A model generated the notes under the pieces. That model saw only the letters and a program-made list of their open reading frames with translations, ran no database searches and had not been told where the DNA came from. Made by a program: the position numbers and the translations under genes. Positions 19,485 through 35,117 of a stretch of DNA of 64,000 bases are shown here, piece by piece. Every line of letters starts with the position of its first letter. The stretch's first letter is position 1. This DNA is from an uncultured Gammaproteobacteria bacterium. GTDB lineage: Bacteria > Pseudomonadota > Gammaproteobacteria > PS1 > Pseudothioglobaceae. The stretch covers positions 2,433-66,432 of the forward strand of contig CAXDLF010000002.1 in NCBI GenBank assembly GCA_963989885.1, given 5' to 3'.

Positions 19485-20018
19485 CTAACTACGACCCTTG
19501 CTGGTGAATTCTTCCATAGTGTGAAGCATTGTTCTTAAGCTGTCTATGGTAGTTTCGAATTCATCACTCGTTAGGTCGGATACAGCAACATCTTCGATTT
19601 CATGATATTTTGAAAAGACTTTTTCCATAAGCTCTTCACCAGCCTTGTTGATTTGAACAACAACTCGTCTAGCGTCATTTGGATGAGCGAGTCTTTGACA
19701 AAAACCATGTTTTTCTAGCGTTATCAAAATTCCTGTCAATGTACTTTTTGCAATGCCAGCATTTTTAGCCAGTTTTGCGGTTTCAAGATCTCCCCAAACC
19801 CACAATACCCACATAACAACAAAGCCAGAAAAGGATAGATTAAATTCCTTGAAAACATGCTTTTCTGCATAACTCCTAATAATTGATGTAAGTCTGAAAG
19901 CGTTTGAAATAATTGAGACTGATCTTCCATATAGTCCAACTGAAATTAAGTGTTTCTTAGCTTTCTCTTCAGCACTTGTAGCTTTTGGAGGTGTTTTATT
20001 TATAGATTTATCCATCAA
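19485..20018 (-). CDS. MarR-family transcriptional regulator
   Basis: Winged-HTH segment ETAKLAKNAGIAKSTLTGILITLEKHGFCQRLAHPNDARRVVVQINKAGEEL. Length 177 aa. It starts 27 nt downstream of the ADC-family gene on the same strand. Confidence 0.85.
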   Translation of the reverse strand: MMDKSINKTPPKATSAEEKAKKHLISVGLYGRSVSIISNAFRLTSIIRSYAEKHVFKEFNLSFSGFVVMWVLWVWGDLETAKLAKNAGIAKSTLTGILITLEKHGFCQRLAHPNDARRVVVQINKAGEELMEKVFSKYHEIEDVAVSDLTSDEFETTIDSLRTMLHTMEEFTSKGRS

Positions 20019-20045
20019 TGATTCTTATTACATAGTTAATTGGAG

Positions 20046-20846
20046 TTATGTTAAATTCTTTCTATCAAGAGTTTGACCGCCCTTCCAAGACACACCAACT
20101 TGACGGTAATAGCCCTGAATTAGTTCCTCAGGTTCGAGCAAATGAAATTCCTCAACCGGTGAAGAGAACAATTCAAGTTCAAAGGAACCTTTGAAGGTAA
20201 GACCAATCTCGGCATCAAAACCTGACATTGTTACTACTTCATTCAAACTGTCTTTACCATCGCATTCAATTGCCGGCATCCATCGGTTGTGAAGCATTGG
20301 TAAGGCATTGACAAACCCCGCATGATCTGATTCTGCCTCAATAGTGAACTTGGCTTGAACTAAGCGATGATCATAAGCAGCTAGAGTAGCCCCAAAAACA
20401 CCTCCAGGCGCAAGTCGAGGCCCTGCTTTTCCTACAGTTGTCGACCTTGTCAAATGAATGGAGCCAATTTTTTTCGGATATCCCTGAAATTGACCACGAG
20501 CAGCAGAAAAATCCTTGTCCACCCAAATATATATACAACGTGAGTAGGTTTTTCCTTTATATTTACAACGAACAACAAAGAACACCTCTTTATATTGGGC
20601 ACGAACAGGGTCTAATAATTCGTTAAAGTTATCGCTACAACTTTGCCAATCTGCCCAGATAACAGCGACAGCTCCGGGATCTTCTTCAGCCAACTCAATT
20701 CCATCTGGCAAGAGTTCTTCTACACGGTCAGGATTAGTTCGATATTCTAAGGTTAATAAGTCTCCCGAATAGTGCCAAGGTACATTGGGAATTAATGAAG
20801 AATTACCAGTGTGAGTTCTAGGAAAAAGAAAACCATTTAAAGACAT
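20046..20846 (-). CDS. Acetoacetate decarboxylase (ADC) family enzyme
   Basis: ADC-family pattern PWHYSGDLLTLEYRTNPDRVEELLP and adjacent lysines in GYPKK, matching the Lys115/Lys116 pair of clostridial ADC (from memory). The ATG at 20846 is preferred over the TTG at 20912. Confidence 0.75.
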   Translation of the reverse strand: MSLNGFLFPRTHTGNSSLIPNVPWHYSGDLLTLEYRTNPDRVEELLPDGIELAEEDPGAVAVIWADWQSCSDNFNELLDPVRAQYKEVFFVVRCKYKGKTYSRCIYIWVDKDFSAARGQFQGYPKKIGSIHLTRSTTVGKAGPRLAPGGVFGATLAAYDHRLVQAKFTIEAESDHAGFVNALPMLHNRWMPAIECDGKDSLNEVVTMSGFDAEIGLTFKGSFELELFSSPVEEFHLLEPEELIQGYYRQVGVSWKGGQTLDRKNLT

Positions 20847-20886
20847 ATATTCAACTATTTCAATTAATGTTATAAATATATGATAC

Positions 20887-20902
20887 CATTCGGGAGCGAA
20901 TG
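20887..20902. promoter_or_regulatory. Candidate operator CATTCG-GGAG-CGAATG (TTCG-N4-CGAA class) in the divergent ADC-marR / FAH-P450 control region
   Basis: Perfect 6+6 inverted repeat with a 4-nt spacer. It shares arm sequence and spacing with the 14-mers at 27320, 32822 and 35269. It lies 41 nt upstream of the ADC ATG. Confidence 0.5.
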
Positions 20903-21007
20903 AAATTATCAAAATTTAAATATACACCTTTGAAATTAAGTCATAATTCATAAATCATCGTATATAATATATAATCATTCGTACCCAAACGAAATATAGG
21001 ATTAAGT

Positions 21008-32724: not shown

Positions 32725-32821
32725 TTATCTCCTTTTTTAAGTTAATTCCATTATAAAAAAACGTCTCAAAATAACCGATAGATTATTCTTTCTTAACTCA
32801 ATTAGGTTGCACTAAAGAGAC

Positions 32822-32835
32822 GTTCGTATACAAAC
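32822..32835. promoter_or_regulatory. Candidate operator GTTCGTATACAAAC (one mismatch to the 14-bp palindrome) upstream of tctC
   Basis: 13/14 identical to the sites at 27320 and 35269. It lies 6 nt downstream of a candidate -10 element and 98 nt upstream of the tctC ATG. Confidence 0.55.
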
Positions 32836-32841
32836 AATCCA

Positions 32842-32870
32842 AATATAACATAATACTTTTAAATAATCAA
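32842..32870 (-). promoter_or_regulatory. Candidate sigma70 promoter of the tctCBA-sulfatase-GATase operon (TTGATT-17 nt-TATATT on the minus strand)
   Basis: The reverse complement of 32865-32870 is TTGATT and that of 32842-32847 is TATATT. The spacer is exactly 17 nt. Confidence 0.45.
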
Positions 32871-32963
32871 TTTATTCAATTTAAATTTACAAAGCTTTTT
32901 TCAATAATCAAGAACGTAATCTAGTTCTCTCAAGATAATAAACTGGCGTCGCTACAATTTTAG

Positions 32964-35117
32964 CTAATGGTATGGTTTAACCAATAAAGTTTCAGCATCA
33001 AGTTGATAATCCTTTTCTGTCGCATTTATTAAACGACGTTCACGAATGAATGGCTTATGTTGGTCGGGGTTATCCGCATCAAATTCTCTTGCAAGACGAG
33101 TTCCAGAAAAAGTTGCCTGTGCAATTACGTTTGGCGTGTGAGCGTCACCGATTAAATGTATAGACTTAATTCCAGCATTGGACATTTCATCAGGCGATCC
33201 TTGTAGTTGATCATATAAATCACAATTAGAAGTTCTGTGCGTGACTAACATAACACTATCGTATTCAACAGTCATTTCCTCACCTTTCCATATATCCACA
33301 AGGGTTGCATTTCCATTTTCAACAGCTACTGCGACATGCTGATGAATCGTTTTAACACCGAGTTCAAGAAGTCTCATTAACATTCGTTGCTCTTCCAAAA
33401 CTAGGCGGAGGTATGGGCCAACGGTTTCTCCATAAGTAGCGTAAGTTACTTCATGACCGTTTTCTGCAATAAGTTCCGCCATAGCAGAACCCATATAATA
33501 TGGATCATTGTCGATTACTAATACTCTTTTTCCGAGTTTTTTCCCATATACACAATACTGTTCTGGAGTAGTAATTTCTGGTTTTGAAGCGTCAGCTCCA
33601 GCTATATAATCATGAAGCGGTGATGACATACCCGTTTCGTCCCAATTAGAACCGGTTGCGAAAACAATGCGCTCAGCTCCACATTCAAGAACATCTTTAT
33701 AATTAAGCCGATTATTTAAGATAATTTGTACATTGGTTTTTGTTCTAATTTGAGTTTCCCGCCAATCAATAACTCTCTTCCAAGCCCCAAAATTAGGCAG
33801 TTTAGAAACCCAACGTAAATGACCACCTATTTCAGCTTCAGCTTCAATTAAATGAACGGTATTATAACCACGAAGACCAAGAGTCATAGCACACTCAAGT
33901 CCAGCAGGCCCTGCCCCAACAACAACAATTGGAAGATCAGGATTGTTTGTTGGAACATATTTTTCAGGATGCCAACCTCTACGATATTCTTCACCGGAGG
34001 TTGGATTTTGAGTGCACCAAATTGGCGGCCCACCTTTTTCCCATCGAGAAACACAAATGTTGCAACCAATACACTCTCGGATATCATTGTATCGACCTTC
34101 CTCTATTTTTTTTGGTAAAAATGGATCAGAAATTGATGGACGAGCTGCCCCAATAATATCGCACTGGCCAGAATTTATTACTTTGATCATAATCTCAGGA
34201 TCTGTAAATCGACCAACATTTATAACCGGTTTTTTGGAAGCTTTTTTTGCATGATGGGTATACTGTGCTTGATGGTTTGAATCAAAGAATCGGGAAGATC
34301 CCGCATCCTCTCCCCAATTAAGAGTACCAATATTTATATCCCAATAGTCAACCAAATCATCCATTGCTTTGATGAAGGCTATACCCTCATCTTCAGCTTT
34401 TATACCTAAATCTCCAAAACCAAAAGGTTCAGATAACGTATCAATTGGAAAACGAATTCCAATTGCACAGTCATCAATTTCCTCTCTCATCATCTCTAAC
34501 AATTCTCGAGTAAAACGACATCGGTTTTCAAAGGAACCGCCGTATTCGTCAGTACGTTTGTTGTGATAACGGTACAAGAAATTCTGGGGTATTGTCGAAA
34601 GACCAACATAAACAGTCAGCAAATCAAAACCTGCTGCTCTTGCTCTTAAAGCTCCATCCACATGTTCACGTTGTATTTGTCGAATTTCTTTAATTGTCAT
34701 TGCCCTGGCACTTGCCATAGGTTCAAATTCATGTGGTATTTGCGAGGGTGCTCGAGTTGGTTCACGGGTTTCTGCATTCAGGCCAAAGGTAGTAGCATGG
34801 GTAAGTTCCACTCCAGCAAGACCACCATGAGCGTGGATACTATCGCACATCAAAGATAAATTCCTAACGTCACCTTCATCAATAATCTTACTTCCAACCC
34901 ATGGATGAATATCACTATCATGCGTTATAAAACAAACTTCCGTAAAAACTGCTCCCCAACCACCTTCAGCTTTCATTCCTCGAAAAGATGCCTGCATTCC
35001 TGGTTTGTCTGATCCAGCTCCATTACAGTGAGGCACTTGCCAGAATCGGTTTTTAAGAACTTTCGGACCAAGTTTGATTGGTTCAAAAAGAATATCGTGA
35101 CGTTTTTCTCTAGCCAT
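32964..35117 (-). CDS. Trimethylamine/dimethylamine/histamine dehydrogenase family iron-sulfur flavoprotein
   Basis: The N-terminus [25 protein letters not shown] carries the Cys that forms 6-S-cysteinyl-FMN in TMADH. The 4Fe-4S motif [20 protein letters not shown] and ADP-binding [10 protein letters not shown] are present. Length 717 aa. AGGAGG RBS. Confidence 0.9.
   Translation of the reverse strand: [717 protein letters not shown]

Follow-up and report, generated by a model that had tools for sequence, protein, structure and literature searches.

A co-regulated gene cluster between miaA and murD of a Thioglobus-like gammaproteobacterium as a candidate route for the catabolism of phenolic arylethylamines

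In a 64,000-nt stretch of DNA from an uncultured gammaproteobacterium (below, "the window" means this whole stretch), a locus of 14 genes spanning about 15.6 kb (19485-35117) combines a glutamine synthetase (GS)-like ligase, a cytochrome P450, an extradiol dioxygenase, a sulfatase, a tripartite tricarboxylate-type (TTT) importer, and a flavoprotein of the trimethylamine dehydrogenase (TMADH) family. We suggest that all 14 genes belong to a single regulon, probably under the control of the MarR-family regulator encoded within it, and that this regulon would catabolize a phenolic arylethylamine of the tyramine/dopamine type; our confidence in this reading is about even. The locus joins elements of the Ipu isopropylamine pathway, the aniline-type systems, the Puu pathway, and the hpa pathway in a fixed, widespread, and co-regulated arrangement. 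A sequence-only reading of the same DNA had called this combination undescribed, and no publication of such a pathway was found in the literature searched.

That reading had also assigned the genes to families, and the open reading frame (ORF) list and Pfam scans recovered all 14 at the same positions and in the same families, together with the flanking genes miaA (IPPT, 18528-19445) and that of a MurD-type ligase (35327-36643). No curated NCBIfam equivalog cutoff is reached by any of the 14 proteins, and we therefore regard them as superfamily members and not as carriers of already named functions. The features of the locus are as follows.

19485-20018, minus strand: MarR-family regulator (Pfam MarR, 52.7 bits)
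20046-20846, minus strand: ADC-superfamily protein of the MppR/Sbi00515 type (Pfam ADC, 177 bits); a longer ORF would start from a TTG at 20912
20888-20901, unstranded: operator-like palindrome ATTCGGGAGCGAAT in the divergent ADC/FAH promoter region
21008-21898, plus strand: FAH-family enzyme, HpaG-like (Pfam FAA_hydrolase, 191 bits)
21925-23202, plus strand: cytochrome P450 related to CYP124/125/268 (Pfam and PDB sequence matches)
23234-24520, plus strand: GS-like amine:glutamate ligase, a proposed gamma-glutamyl-amide synthetase (Pfam Gln-synt_C, 290 bits)
24527-25993, plus strand: aldehyde dehydrogenase (ALDH), HpaE-like, 488 aa (HpaE is the best model)
26021-26350, plus strand: 2Fe-2S ferredoxin, presumed electron carrier of the P450 (Pfam Fer2)
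26366-27271, minus strand: LigB-type extradiol dioxygenase (Pfam LigB, 113 bits)
27320-27333, unstranded: operator palindrome GTTCGTATACGAAC upstream of LigB
27377-28096, minus strand: class-I GATase-like protein, a proposed gamma-glutamyl-amide hydrolase (Pfam GATase, 52 bits)
28097-29665, minus strand: Cys-type sulfatase, cytoplasmic (Pfam Sulfatase, 171 bits)
29680-31161, minus strand: TctA of the TTT importer (Pfam)
31169-31696, minus strand: TctB of the TTT importer (Pfam)
31786-32724, minus strand: TctC of the TTT importer (Pfam; signal peptide)
32822-32835, unstranded: operator copy GTTCGTATACAAAC, with one mismatch, upstream of tctC
32915-32964, minus strand: deletion scar holding the last ~46 bp of a GcvT-family gene (comparison with relatives)
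32964-35117, minus strand: TMADH-family flavoprotein, 717 aa, OYE and Pyr_redox_2 (FMN, 4Fe-4S, and ADP-binding domains)
35269-35282, unstranded: operator palindrome GTTCGTATACGAAC upstream of the TMADH-like gene

The ATG at 20846 is likely the true start of the ADC-like gene, because its relatives are called at 266 aa.

Shared operator and co-conserved genes

All four promoter regions of the locus have one conserved site in common. The 14-bp palindrome GTTCGTATACGAAC occurs without mismatch 49-62 bp upstream of LigB and again about 150 bp upstream of the TMADH-like gene, at an expectation for an exact 14-mer of only ~0.0005 per 64 kb. The copy about 100 bp upstream of tctC differs from it by one mismatch and is perfect in six related loci (L012, L096, L097, L099, L100, and L101), and the ATTCGGGAGCGAAT site in the ADC/FAH promoter region is also present in L001-L006, L012, and L014. 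In the general form TTCG-N4-CGAA, 119 sites were found in the 2.2 Mb of loci fetched for comparison, versus 19 in shuffled sequence; of these, 54 fall in the 350 bp upstream of recognized cluster genes, and many are placed 20-130 bp upstream of P450, LigB, FAH, ADC, tctC, GcvT/TMADH, C26 hydrolase, or ALDH genes. Sites so placed are seen in three phyla. They are found in Gammaproteobacteria, Alphaproteobacteria, Acidimicrobiales, and Nitriliruptoraceae, many with a MarR gene in the fetched stretch. At many loci the P450 and LigB genes diverge from a single operator-bearing promoter, and the palindrome also precedes a GcvT-TMADH pair in an actinobacterial locus with a MarR gene. A common palindrome at the four promoter regions and in other phyla points to one regulon.

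We presume that the MarR protein, whose gene is transcribed after the ADC-like gene, is the repressor that binds the palindrome. Among the NCBIfam models it comes closest to HpaR, with 47.7 bits where the cutoff is 121, and orthologs 30-53% identical are encoded in operator-carrying clusters of Alphaproteobacteria, Gammaproteobacteria, and Actinobacteria. Five transcription units had been proposed for the locus; gene spacing and the operator sites give four promoter regions instead. P450, GS-like ligase, and ferredoxin belong to a single gene string (21925-26350), and in the ORF list the GATase start abuts the sulfatase stop with TctCBA directly upstream, again as one gene string. A scan of 19300-35500 for promoter and terminator consensus sequences gave 42 promoter-like sites where 50.5 were expected and 14 terminator-like sites where 11.1 were expected; neither class was enriched, and the scan was not used for defining operons. 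A second palindrome, TTCGTACCCAAACGAA, with identical half-sites and a longer spacer, lies at 20978-20993, 15 bp upstream of the FAH start.

The P450, as the least promiscuous family of the locus, served as bait for examining the co-conservation of the genes. An alignment of four orthologs from three phyla (48-65% identical) retrieved P450 orthologs 48-67% identical from at least 449 stretches of a one-genome-per-species collection, and the best 80 of these stretches, together with 10-kb flanks, were compared with the window proteins by tblastn. The GS-like gene was present at 62 of the 80 P450 loci, mostly adjacent to the P450 gene, and a GATase or C26 partner at 44. LigB was found at 34, ADC and FAH at 28 each, and ALDH at 26, with LigB, ADC, and FAH jointly present at 22. 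MarR, ADC-like, FAH, P450, GS-like, ALDH, and LigB genes recur together in Alphaproteobacteria, Gammaproteobacteria, and Actinobacteria; the loci with ring-cleavage genes come from Kordiimonas, Novosphingobium, Brumicola/Glaciecola, alphaproteobacterial metagenome-assembled genomes (MAGs), Acidimicrobiales, and Nitriliruptorales. The identities across phyla (FAH 72-78% over Kordiimonas, Novosphingobium, and Acidimicrobiales; ADC 60-68%; ALDH 59-66%; LigB 50-61%) are unusually high for the distances involved. One of the LigB orthologs, on a plasmid of Novosphingobium sp. EMRT-2 (L164:11012-11869, 55% identical), is annotated as "catechol 1,2-dioxygenase", a misleading public name for a LigB-type extradiol enzyme.

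The ring-opening enzyme itself is exchanged between lineages. Clusters of Anaerolineae (Chloroflexi) and Deinococcales (Deinococcota) keep ADC, FAH, ALDH, GS, and P450 and carry a VOC-type dioxygenase instead of LigB, and at one SAR116 locus the ring-cleaving enzyme is an intradiol dioxygenase. This non-orthologous swapping argues strongly for a catechol intermediate. In a neighbor-joining tree of the P450s, the association with ring cleavage occurs on all major branches, and the loci without it make up two derived groups, one of roseobacters and Limnohabitans and one of gammaproteobacteria with an enoyl-CoA hydratase. Acidimicrobiales carry a compact MarR-ADC-P450-LigB / FAH-ALDH cluster that has no GS gene, which ties the P450 to the dioxygenase and not merely to the ligase.

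In roseobacters and Limnohabitans (L021-L036, L046-L062, and L163), the version without ring-cleavage genes consists of GATase, P450, GS, a class-III aminotransferase, an IclR or GntR regulator, orthologous TctCBA, a PuuC-like ALDH, and a Tm-1-like ATP-binding protein, and its substrate may differ. On the megaplasmid of Ruegeria sp. TM1040 (L163), it adjoins paaABCD and PaaI; a check of all loci found this adjacency in that strain only, which makes it weak evidence. The nearest non-Thioglobus relatives of the window P450 and GS-like ligase (65-67% identical; L007 and L018-L020) are encoded in a minimal cluster of enoyl-CoA hydratase, P450, GS, ferredoxin, ferredoxin reductase, and MarR that is free of genes for ring cleavage or a hydrolase; in L018 and L020, the operator precedes P450.

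Orthologs of the importer, the sulfatase, and the TMADH-like protein are found with the same partners elsewhere. TctC (52-68% identical) and TctA (55-66%) were found at seven unrelated P450 loci and two TMADH-like loci, and they rejoin P450 and GS in Albibacillus, Aliiroseovarius, Shimia, Arenicellales, SAR116, and two MAGs; such a TctC identity is very high for the TctC family. Sulfatase orthologs 43-45% identical are present at the P450/GS loci of Arenicellales and SAR116, and the range becomes 43-53% when locus L092 is included. In a separate search, TMADH-like orthologs at 60-80% identity were common. In L092 (49% GC), the TMADH-like gene (75% identical) is followed by a GcvT-family gene and lies 4 kb from orthologous TctCBA, LigB, ALDH, and sulfatase genes, and in Planktomarina it adjoins orthologous TctCBA, another GS-like gene, and GcvT. 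The sequence-only reading had treated the genes as one functional unit. Their co-localization across phyla and the conserved operator before every unit, that of the TMADH-like gene included, bear this out, so that both co-conservation and co-regulation are found as far as sequence allows.

Two genes of the relatives are missing in this strain. Every relative examined has a GcvT-family (aminomethyltransferase-like) gene of ~1.07 kb between the TMADH-like gene and tctC, including contig L095, which is 98.9% identical to the window yet keeps it. The homology of the window breaks between 32960 and 32965 and leaves ~46 bp of the 3' end; an assembly artifact is possible. A ferredoxin reductase gene (Pyr_redox_2-type) follows the ferredoxin gene in L013, L015, L016, L101, and L110, and there is none between ferredoxin and LigB in the window (26350-26366) or in L012; strain SCGC AAA007-O20 likewise has no ferredoxin reductase. 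Either other genes substitute for the two, or the pathway is partly eroded in this lineage. A BenC-like Fer2-FAD-NAD reductase gene (17442-18458) adjoins bolA, across miaA from the cluster, and is also syntenic in relatives that own a dedicated ferredoxin reductase; its product is a possible electron donor for the P450.

Enzymes and proposed route

The GS-like protein is, as judged from its sequence, not a true glutamine synthetase. It has no N-terminal GS domain in Pfam, it scores well below the cutoffs of the models for GlnA (226 against 429), type III GS (243 against 470), and PuuA (226 against 650), and it matches the solved GS and GS-like structures with 150-181 bits, the "type III glutamate--ammonia ligase" 7cql with only 150. 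Its five plasmid-borne matches at E <= 1e-60 are uncharacterized members of the same family or a Streptomyces relative, and none of the five is annotated as an aniline or naphthylamine gene. The P450 has a normal Cys ligand loop and an I-helix AAGNDTT motif with the acid-alcohol pair; its nearest solved relatives are CYP125, CYP124, CYP268, and CYP153. The Ipu isopropylamine pathway (PMC6776027) likewise combines a ligase of the GS-like kind with a P450 system and an amidotransferase-type hydrolase. That pathway, in Pseudomonas sp. KIE171 and on plasmids of Arthrobacter aurescens TC1, resembles the locus in its GS-like amide synthesis, P450 with ferredoxin, amidotransferase-type hydrolase, and ALDHs (PMC6776027). 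The locus differs from it by the extradiol dioxygenase, the HpaG-like FAH, the ADC-superfamily enzyme, the TTT importer, the sulfatase, and the TMADH-like gene, by the lack of a ferredoxin reductase in this strain, and by having no close plasmid-borne GS-like relative beyond the same uncharacterized family.

The lower part of the locus resembles the hpa/hpc pathway of E. coli W and C. LigB, ALDH, FAH, and MarR each match an hpa model best, and all four fall below the cutoffs: 142 bits against 316 for LigB (HpaD_Fe), 478 against 638 for ALDH (HpaE; 563 for the Anaerolineae ortholog), 197 against 276 for FAH (C-terminal half of HpaG), and, as given above, HpaR for MarR. The window LigB is nearest to 3,4-dihydroxyphenylacetate (homoprotocatechuate) 2,3-dioxygenase, with 86 bits to the structure 8iq8, against 30-41 bits for aminophenol dioxygenases, and the best model for the Anaerolineae VOC enzyme is the VOC-type HpaD. 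HpaBC, HpaF, HpaH, and HpaI are encoded neither among the 14 genes nor in the flanks; unlike in hpa, an ADC-superfamily protein takes the place of the hydratase/aldolase and a P450 that of the hydroxylase. The ADC-like protein matches MppR (4jm3) with 180 bits, 4zbo with 132, and 5upb with 87; it reaches 193 bits against a cutoff of 380 in the MppR equivalog model and just 27.7 bits in that of true acetoacetate decarboxylase. Family V ADC-like enzymes (MppR, Sbi00515, and Swit_4259) are pyruvate aldolase-dehydratases or hydratases and not decarboxylases. Such an activity would supply the step for which the cluster encodes neither HpaH nor HpaI; at the Lentibacter locus, a true HpaI aldolase is found instead. 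The family is found here in a catabolic ring-cleavage cluster and not in an antibiotic cluster. A biosynthetic role, considered for the likeness to MppR, was rejected in view of the importer, sulfatase, ALDH, MarR, and ring-cleavage genes and of the lack of biosynthetic core enzymes.

The GATase-like protein has the motifs GVCFGHQ and GHPE and with them the catalytic Cys-His-Glu triad. Ligase, oxidation, ALDH, and class-I GATase follow the same logic as in the Puu/Pau pathways, with two differences: the oxidant here is a P450 and theirs a flavin oxidase, and the gamma-glutamylputrescine synthetase model is matched far below its cutoff.

The remaining proteins would deliver the substrate. The predicted TTT importer was confirmed by Pfam matches to TctC, TctB, and TctA and by the signal peptide MMKKTLIGVLFALSAFMVGMPIAQA of TctC. 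The sulfatase is indeed leaderless, as had been noted; it starts with MNKNILFIMCDQLRHD, carries the Cys-type formylglycine motif C51-G-P-S-R-A-S-F-Y-T-G-R, and is nearest to 4upi/4upl, phosphonate-monoester hydrolases, and arylsulfatases, not to carbohydrate sulfatases. Choline-O-sulfate was rejected as a substrate: the protein reaches 216 bits in the choline-sulfatase model, whose cutoff is 433, far less than in models of the PehA/arylsulfatase type, and the ring-cleavage genes would be left unexplained. Among the window ORFs scanned, there was neither an FGE/anSME sulfatase maturation enzyme nor an electron transfer flavoprotein (ETF).

The flavoprotein is a relative of TMADH, as the sequence-only reading had it, and matches the enzyme of Methylophilus methylotrophus W3A1 (PDB 1DJN/2TMD) over its full length (707 bits, E 2.6e-211); that enzyme and histamine dehydrogenase are its closest known counterparts. 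The cofactor residues are kept, namely Cys30 (as C31; 6-S-cysteinyl-FMN) and the four 4Fe-4S cysteines (CxxCxxC...C), and so are Tyr169, Trp264, Asp267, and Trp355. In the pocket, Tyr60 is replaced by Val, Ser74 by Gly, Trp105 by Thr, His172 by Leu, and Tyr174 by Thr, so that the aromatic bowl retains Trp264 and Trp355 but not Tyr60. With Tyr60, Trp105, His172, and Tyr174 replaced, a plain role in the oxidation of trimethylamine (TMA) or dimethylamine (DMA) is not supported; the smaller residues suggest an N-methylated amine bulkier than TMA. Leu173, at the position of His172, is invariant in 11 members of what is a distinct subfamily (60-80% mutual identity), usually accompanied by a GcvT-like gene. 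An exact look-up of the window protein gave no record. The GcvT-like partner in relatives resembles the folate-binding C-terminal half of trimethylamine N-oxide demethylase and GcvT, which fits formaldehyde capture.

Related clusters give indications of the substrate. The Anaerolineae cluster encodes a relative of the Enterococcus-type tyrosine decarboxylase, an amino-acid permease, and a second decarboxylase; that of Arenicellales encodes a decarboxylase with 597 bits to PDB 7xin ("DOPA decarboxylase") and an aromatic amino-acid transaminase above the curated cutoff; and the Lentibacter locus has a related decarboxylase and a separate FAD ring hydroxylase. The Novosphingobium cluster adds a tannase/feruloyl esterase, a carboxylesterase, a CocE/NonD hydrolase, and a TonB receptor. 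The lineages thus seem to vary in their "upper" delivery genes around a common core, and the common denominator would be a 4-hydroxy- or 3,4-dihydroxyphenyl compound with a side-chain amine, which the Thioglobus clade would take in through the TTT importer, desulfate, and N-demethylate.

The gene families, their co-localization, the common operator, and the nearest-family relationships are seen in the sequences; the substrate, the sequence of reactions, the regiochemistry of the P450, and the cleavage of a glutamylated ring are inferred in the route that we propose. The TTT system would import a compound that must bear an anionic group (a carboxylate or a sulfate ester), and the cytoplasmic arylsulfatase-type enzyme would strip off an O-sulfate. 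The TMADH-like flavoprotein would N-demethylate the amine, with the formaldehyde taken in relatives by the GcvT-like folate-dependent partner. The GS-like ligase would then join the free amine to the gamma-carboxyl of glutamate at the expense of ATP, and the ferredoxin-fed P450 would oxidize the distal aromatic end to a catechol, converting gamma-glutamyl-tyramine to gamma-glutamyl-dopamine. The HpaD-like LigB would open the ring with the nitrogen still masked. Ring-fission products of DOPA and dopamine cyclize spontaneously via the free amine (betalain and pyrrolobenzodiazepine chemistry), and because of this the masking would serve to stop the amine from cyclizing onto the ring-fission aldehyde.

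The HpaE-like ALDH, as dehydrogenase of the ring-fission semialdehyde, the HpaG-like FAH (isomerase/decarboxylase), and the ADC-like hydratase/aldolase would yield pyruvate and gamma-glutamyl-4-aminobutanal. This chemistry is modeled on the homoprotocatechuate pathway, with a CH2CH2NH-glutamyl side chain replacing CH2COOH, and gamma-glutamyl-4-aminobutanal is an intermediate of the Puu pathway. After oxidation of the aldehyde, the GATase-like hydrolase would free glutamate and 4-aminobutyrate (GABA). We put forward only tentatively, as something short of an even chance, that a widespread MarR/TTCG-N4-CGAA regulon for phenolic arylethylamines, including hordenine-type N-methyl forms and O-sulfates, works by such glutamyl-masked ring cleavage ending in gamma-glutamyl-GABA.

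A second gamma-glutamylation cluster, of the puu/pau type, lies at 38054-50877, 3-15 kb downstream. It contains two DAO-family oxidases, a GATase/C26 hydrolase, an arginase-family enzyme, a class-III aminotransferase, another GS-like ligase, a PotFGHI-like ABC importer, and an NADP succinate-semialdehyde dehydrogenase (49411-50877) that scores above the curated cutoff. The puu-like genes and this dehydrogenase could take up the predicted end products, glutamate and GABA.

Several points weigh against this interpretation. The link between the MarR protein and the palindrome is one of co-occurrence only. At 31 of the 80 loci, P450, GS, and GATase are present with no ring-cleavage enzyme within 10 kb, and the P450/GS pair is therefore not exclusive to aromatic substrates; the nearest solved relatives of the P450 are, moreover, aliphatic omega-hydroxylases. 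No decarboxylase is encoded in the window cluster, which is thus linked to tyrosine and DOPA through other lineages only, and if the amine is dopamine, as the DOPA-decarboxylase-like genes would have it, a ring-hydroxylating P450 is unnecessary. There is a single ALDH, and the scheme requires two aldehyde oxidations. TTT binding proteins normally bind carboxylates, and an arylethylamine has none unless a sulfate ester is the anion. Without the reductase and the GcvT partner, the pathway may also be impaired in this strain.

Alternative explanations

The strongest alternative keeps the regulon and the kind of substrate and moves the site of P450 attack. The P450 would hydroxylate the carbon beside the amide nitrogen, and GS, P450, and GATase would together replace an amine oxidase such as TynA. 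The carbinolamide would collapse, or be hydrolyzed by the GATase, to glutamine/glutamate and an arylacetaldehyde, which ALDH would convert to 3,4-dihydroxyphenylacetate; LigB, ALDH, FAH, and the ADC-like protein would then carry out a regular homoprotocatechuate meta-cleavage that yields pyruvate and succinate semialdehyde. This scheme is favored by the resemblance of every lower-pathway protein to its hpa counterpart (HpaD, HpaE, HpaG, and HpaR, and the VOC-type HpaD), by the two ALDHs in the Kordiimonas and Novosphingobium clusters, one beside GS and one beside FAH, and by the DOPA-decarboxylase-like genes, which imply that the amine is already a catechol. The separate FAD ring hydroxylase and HpaI aldolase of Lentibacter, the GATase-P450-GS genes beside paaABCD and PaaI in Ruegeria sp. 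TM1040, and the succinate-semialdehyde dehydrogenase in the window would also agree with it.

However, the P450-LigB operons of Acidimicrobiales have no GS or GATase gene nearby and are hard to fit to a P450 that acts on gamma-glutamyl amides only. In addition, the Ipu precedent hydroxylates a distal carbon (PMC6776027), the Anaerolineae cluster encodes a tyrosine decarboxylase relative with the P450 as the sole ring hydroxylase, and the paa adjacency occurs in one genome only. On the first three of these grounds, we prefer oxidation of the aromatic ring and consider attack next to the nitrogen unlikely.

The sequence-only reading would have been overturned if the units belonged to separate pathways that are merely adjacent here: one for the oxidation of TMA/DMA, one that scavenges sulfate esters with the help of a carboxylate importer, an alkylamine route resembling ipu, and a route for aromatic acids resembling hpa. 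A known analog exists for each of these modules, and most of the 80 P450 loci lack the TTT, sulfatase, and TMADH-like genes. The TMADH-like and GcvT pair is found without aromatic genes in Planktomarina and Acidimicrobiaceae, and L100 has a dimethylformamidase-like gene and an ABC importer beside the TMADH-like gene. Against this stand the single palindrome before all units of the window and before the actinobacterial GcvT-TMADH pair, the GATase, a core gene, that abuts the sulfatase in one gene string with TctCBA, and the TctC, sulfatase, and TMADH-like genes that rejoin P450, GS, LigB, and ALDH in Arenicellales, SAR116, and L092. The TMADH-like pocket is also unlike that of the TMA enzyme. 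We regard independent neighboring pathways as improbable.

It could further be imagined that the substrate is an arylamine (aniline or aminophenol), with the P450 in place of a Rieske dioxygenase hydroxylating a gamma-glutamyl-anilide and with cleavage as in amn/tdn. Aniline dioxygenase systems are characterized by a GS-like ligase together with a GATase-like enzyme, and their aniline and naphthylamine dioxygenases oxidize gamma-glutamylated arylamines (PMC11335346), and LigB-family aminophenol dioxygenases exist and match weakly. AtdA1-A5, Tdn, and NpaA1-A5 share with the locus an aromatic amine gamma-glutamylated before ring oxidation, a GATase-like partner, and a catechol that goes to cleavage (PMC11335346). 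Their oxygenase is a Rieske dioxygenase, whereas no ORF of the locus has a Rieske domain in Pfam, and the nitrogen here is probably on a side chain, so that ring oxidation would not expel it. The LigB scores favor homoprotocatechuate over aminophenol dioxygenases, there is one LigB subunit only and no deaminase gene, the decarboxylases and transaminase of related clusters indicate side-chain amines, and the annotations of the five plasmid GS-like matches point to no such system. Arylamine catabolism is thus highly improbable.

The sequence-only reading had offered two hypotheses. The second, in which an aromatic or phenolic amine, possibly in the form of a sulfate ester, is catabolized down to extradiol ring cleavage, agrees with the comparative evidence. 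Of the first, a short-alkylamine route that leads from N-dealkylation and gamma-glutamylation through terminal hydroxylation by the P450 and oxidation by the ALDH to release by the GATase, the N-dealkylation survives as an upper step, as the TMADH-like and GcvT-like genes lie in the same gene string in relatives. As a complete route, to which the aromatic genes would be unrelated, it has very little probability left: the P450 is akin to terminal hydroxylases and the Roseobacter/Limnohabitans loci, with only GATase-P450-GS, a PuuC-like ALDH, and a class-III aminotransferase, follow an Ipu/Puu-like logic, but the window P450-GS operon opens with an HpaG-like FAH and includes an HpaE-like ALDH, and LigB, ADC, and FAH co-occur with P450 in Alphaproteobacteria, Gammaproteobacteria, and Actinobacteria under the same operator. 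LigB, FAH, ADC, and ALDH, the most strongly co-conserved partner module of the P450, would be left unexplained.

Chromosomal setting and significance

The closest genome is that of Gamma proteobacterium SCGC AAA007-O20 (P450 96% identical; 91% nucleotide identity over 19 kb), followed by MAGs of Candidatus Thioglobus and "Thiotrichaceae/Piscirickettsiaceae", which places the window in the SUP05/ARCTIC96BD-19 (Thioglobus-like) clade. An identical locus is present in marine metagenome contigs. In more distant clade members the left end reads BolA, BenC-like reductase, miaA, cluster (L015 and L016), and at the right end the cluster is followed by murD in L097, L099, and L100. A metagenome scan gave six Thioglobus-clade contigs with the order murD / TMADH-like, GcvT-like, TctC, TctB, TctA, sulfatase, GATase, LigB / (reductase), ferredoxin, ALDH, GS. 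The conserved position between miaA and murD across the clade indicates a stable chromosomal locus and not a recent insertion.

The term "island" used earlier is therefore not retained: GC content is flat at ~0.38-0.41 over the borders, mobility genes are lacking, and the site is the same clade-wide. The accompanying statement that no transposase, integrase, or tRNA marks the borders holds, with no tRNA in the window (ARAGORN) and no mobility domain in the ORFs scanned, and a repeat search found no border repeats flanking the locus. Recombination has probably occurred at the right border, as suggested by a sharp drop at the junction (~35178-35300) in L098, which is 92% identical to the window in the TMADH-like gene and 72% in murD, and by 8.4 kb inserted between murD and the TMADH-like gene in L100 (L100:1215-9650). 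The insert contains a TetR gene, Peripla_BP_6 with a Liv-type ABC importer, the N,N-dimethylformamidase-beta-like protein, and a further operator copy (L100:8827). The other contigs are uniformly similar. Elsewhere the window consists of core genes (miaB, mnmA, xseA, murC-murB-ddl-ftsQ, ftsY, argH, and a thrA-like gene), and Rfam at gathering thresholds found nothing in the window.

Gamma-glutamylation is known for polyamines. As a "handle" on amines, it has also been described for isopropylamine (PMC6776027) and anilines (PMC11335346). Its combination with a P450 and extradiol cleavage for biogenic aromatic amines is undescribed in the literature searched. The system is not confined to one genome, as the P450 orthologs show, and the aromatic module accompanies the P450 in five phyla; the conserved operator makes the regulon easily traced and testable. 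The analysis also provides candidate functions for uncharacterized subfamilies, namely the GS-like ligase, the TMADH-like and GcvT pair, the family V ADC-like protein, and the TctC clade.

We suggest that tyramine- and dopamine-type compounds, with their methylated and sulfated conjugates, may be a carbon and nitrogen source for heterotrophic members of SUP05/ARCTIC96BD-19. If this is true, the regulon would extend over SUP05/ARCTIC96BD-19, SAR116-type and other Alphaproteobacteria, Acidimicrobiales, Nitriliruptorales, and Anaerolineae, new substrate classes would be added for GS-like ligases, a TMADH subfamily, and a TTT transporter, and abundant marine bacterioplankton would be linked to the turnover of algal and animal catecholamines.

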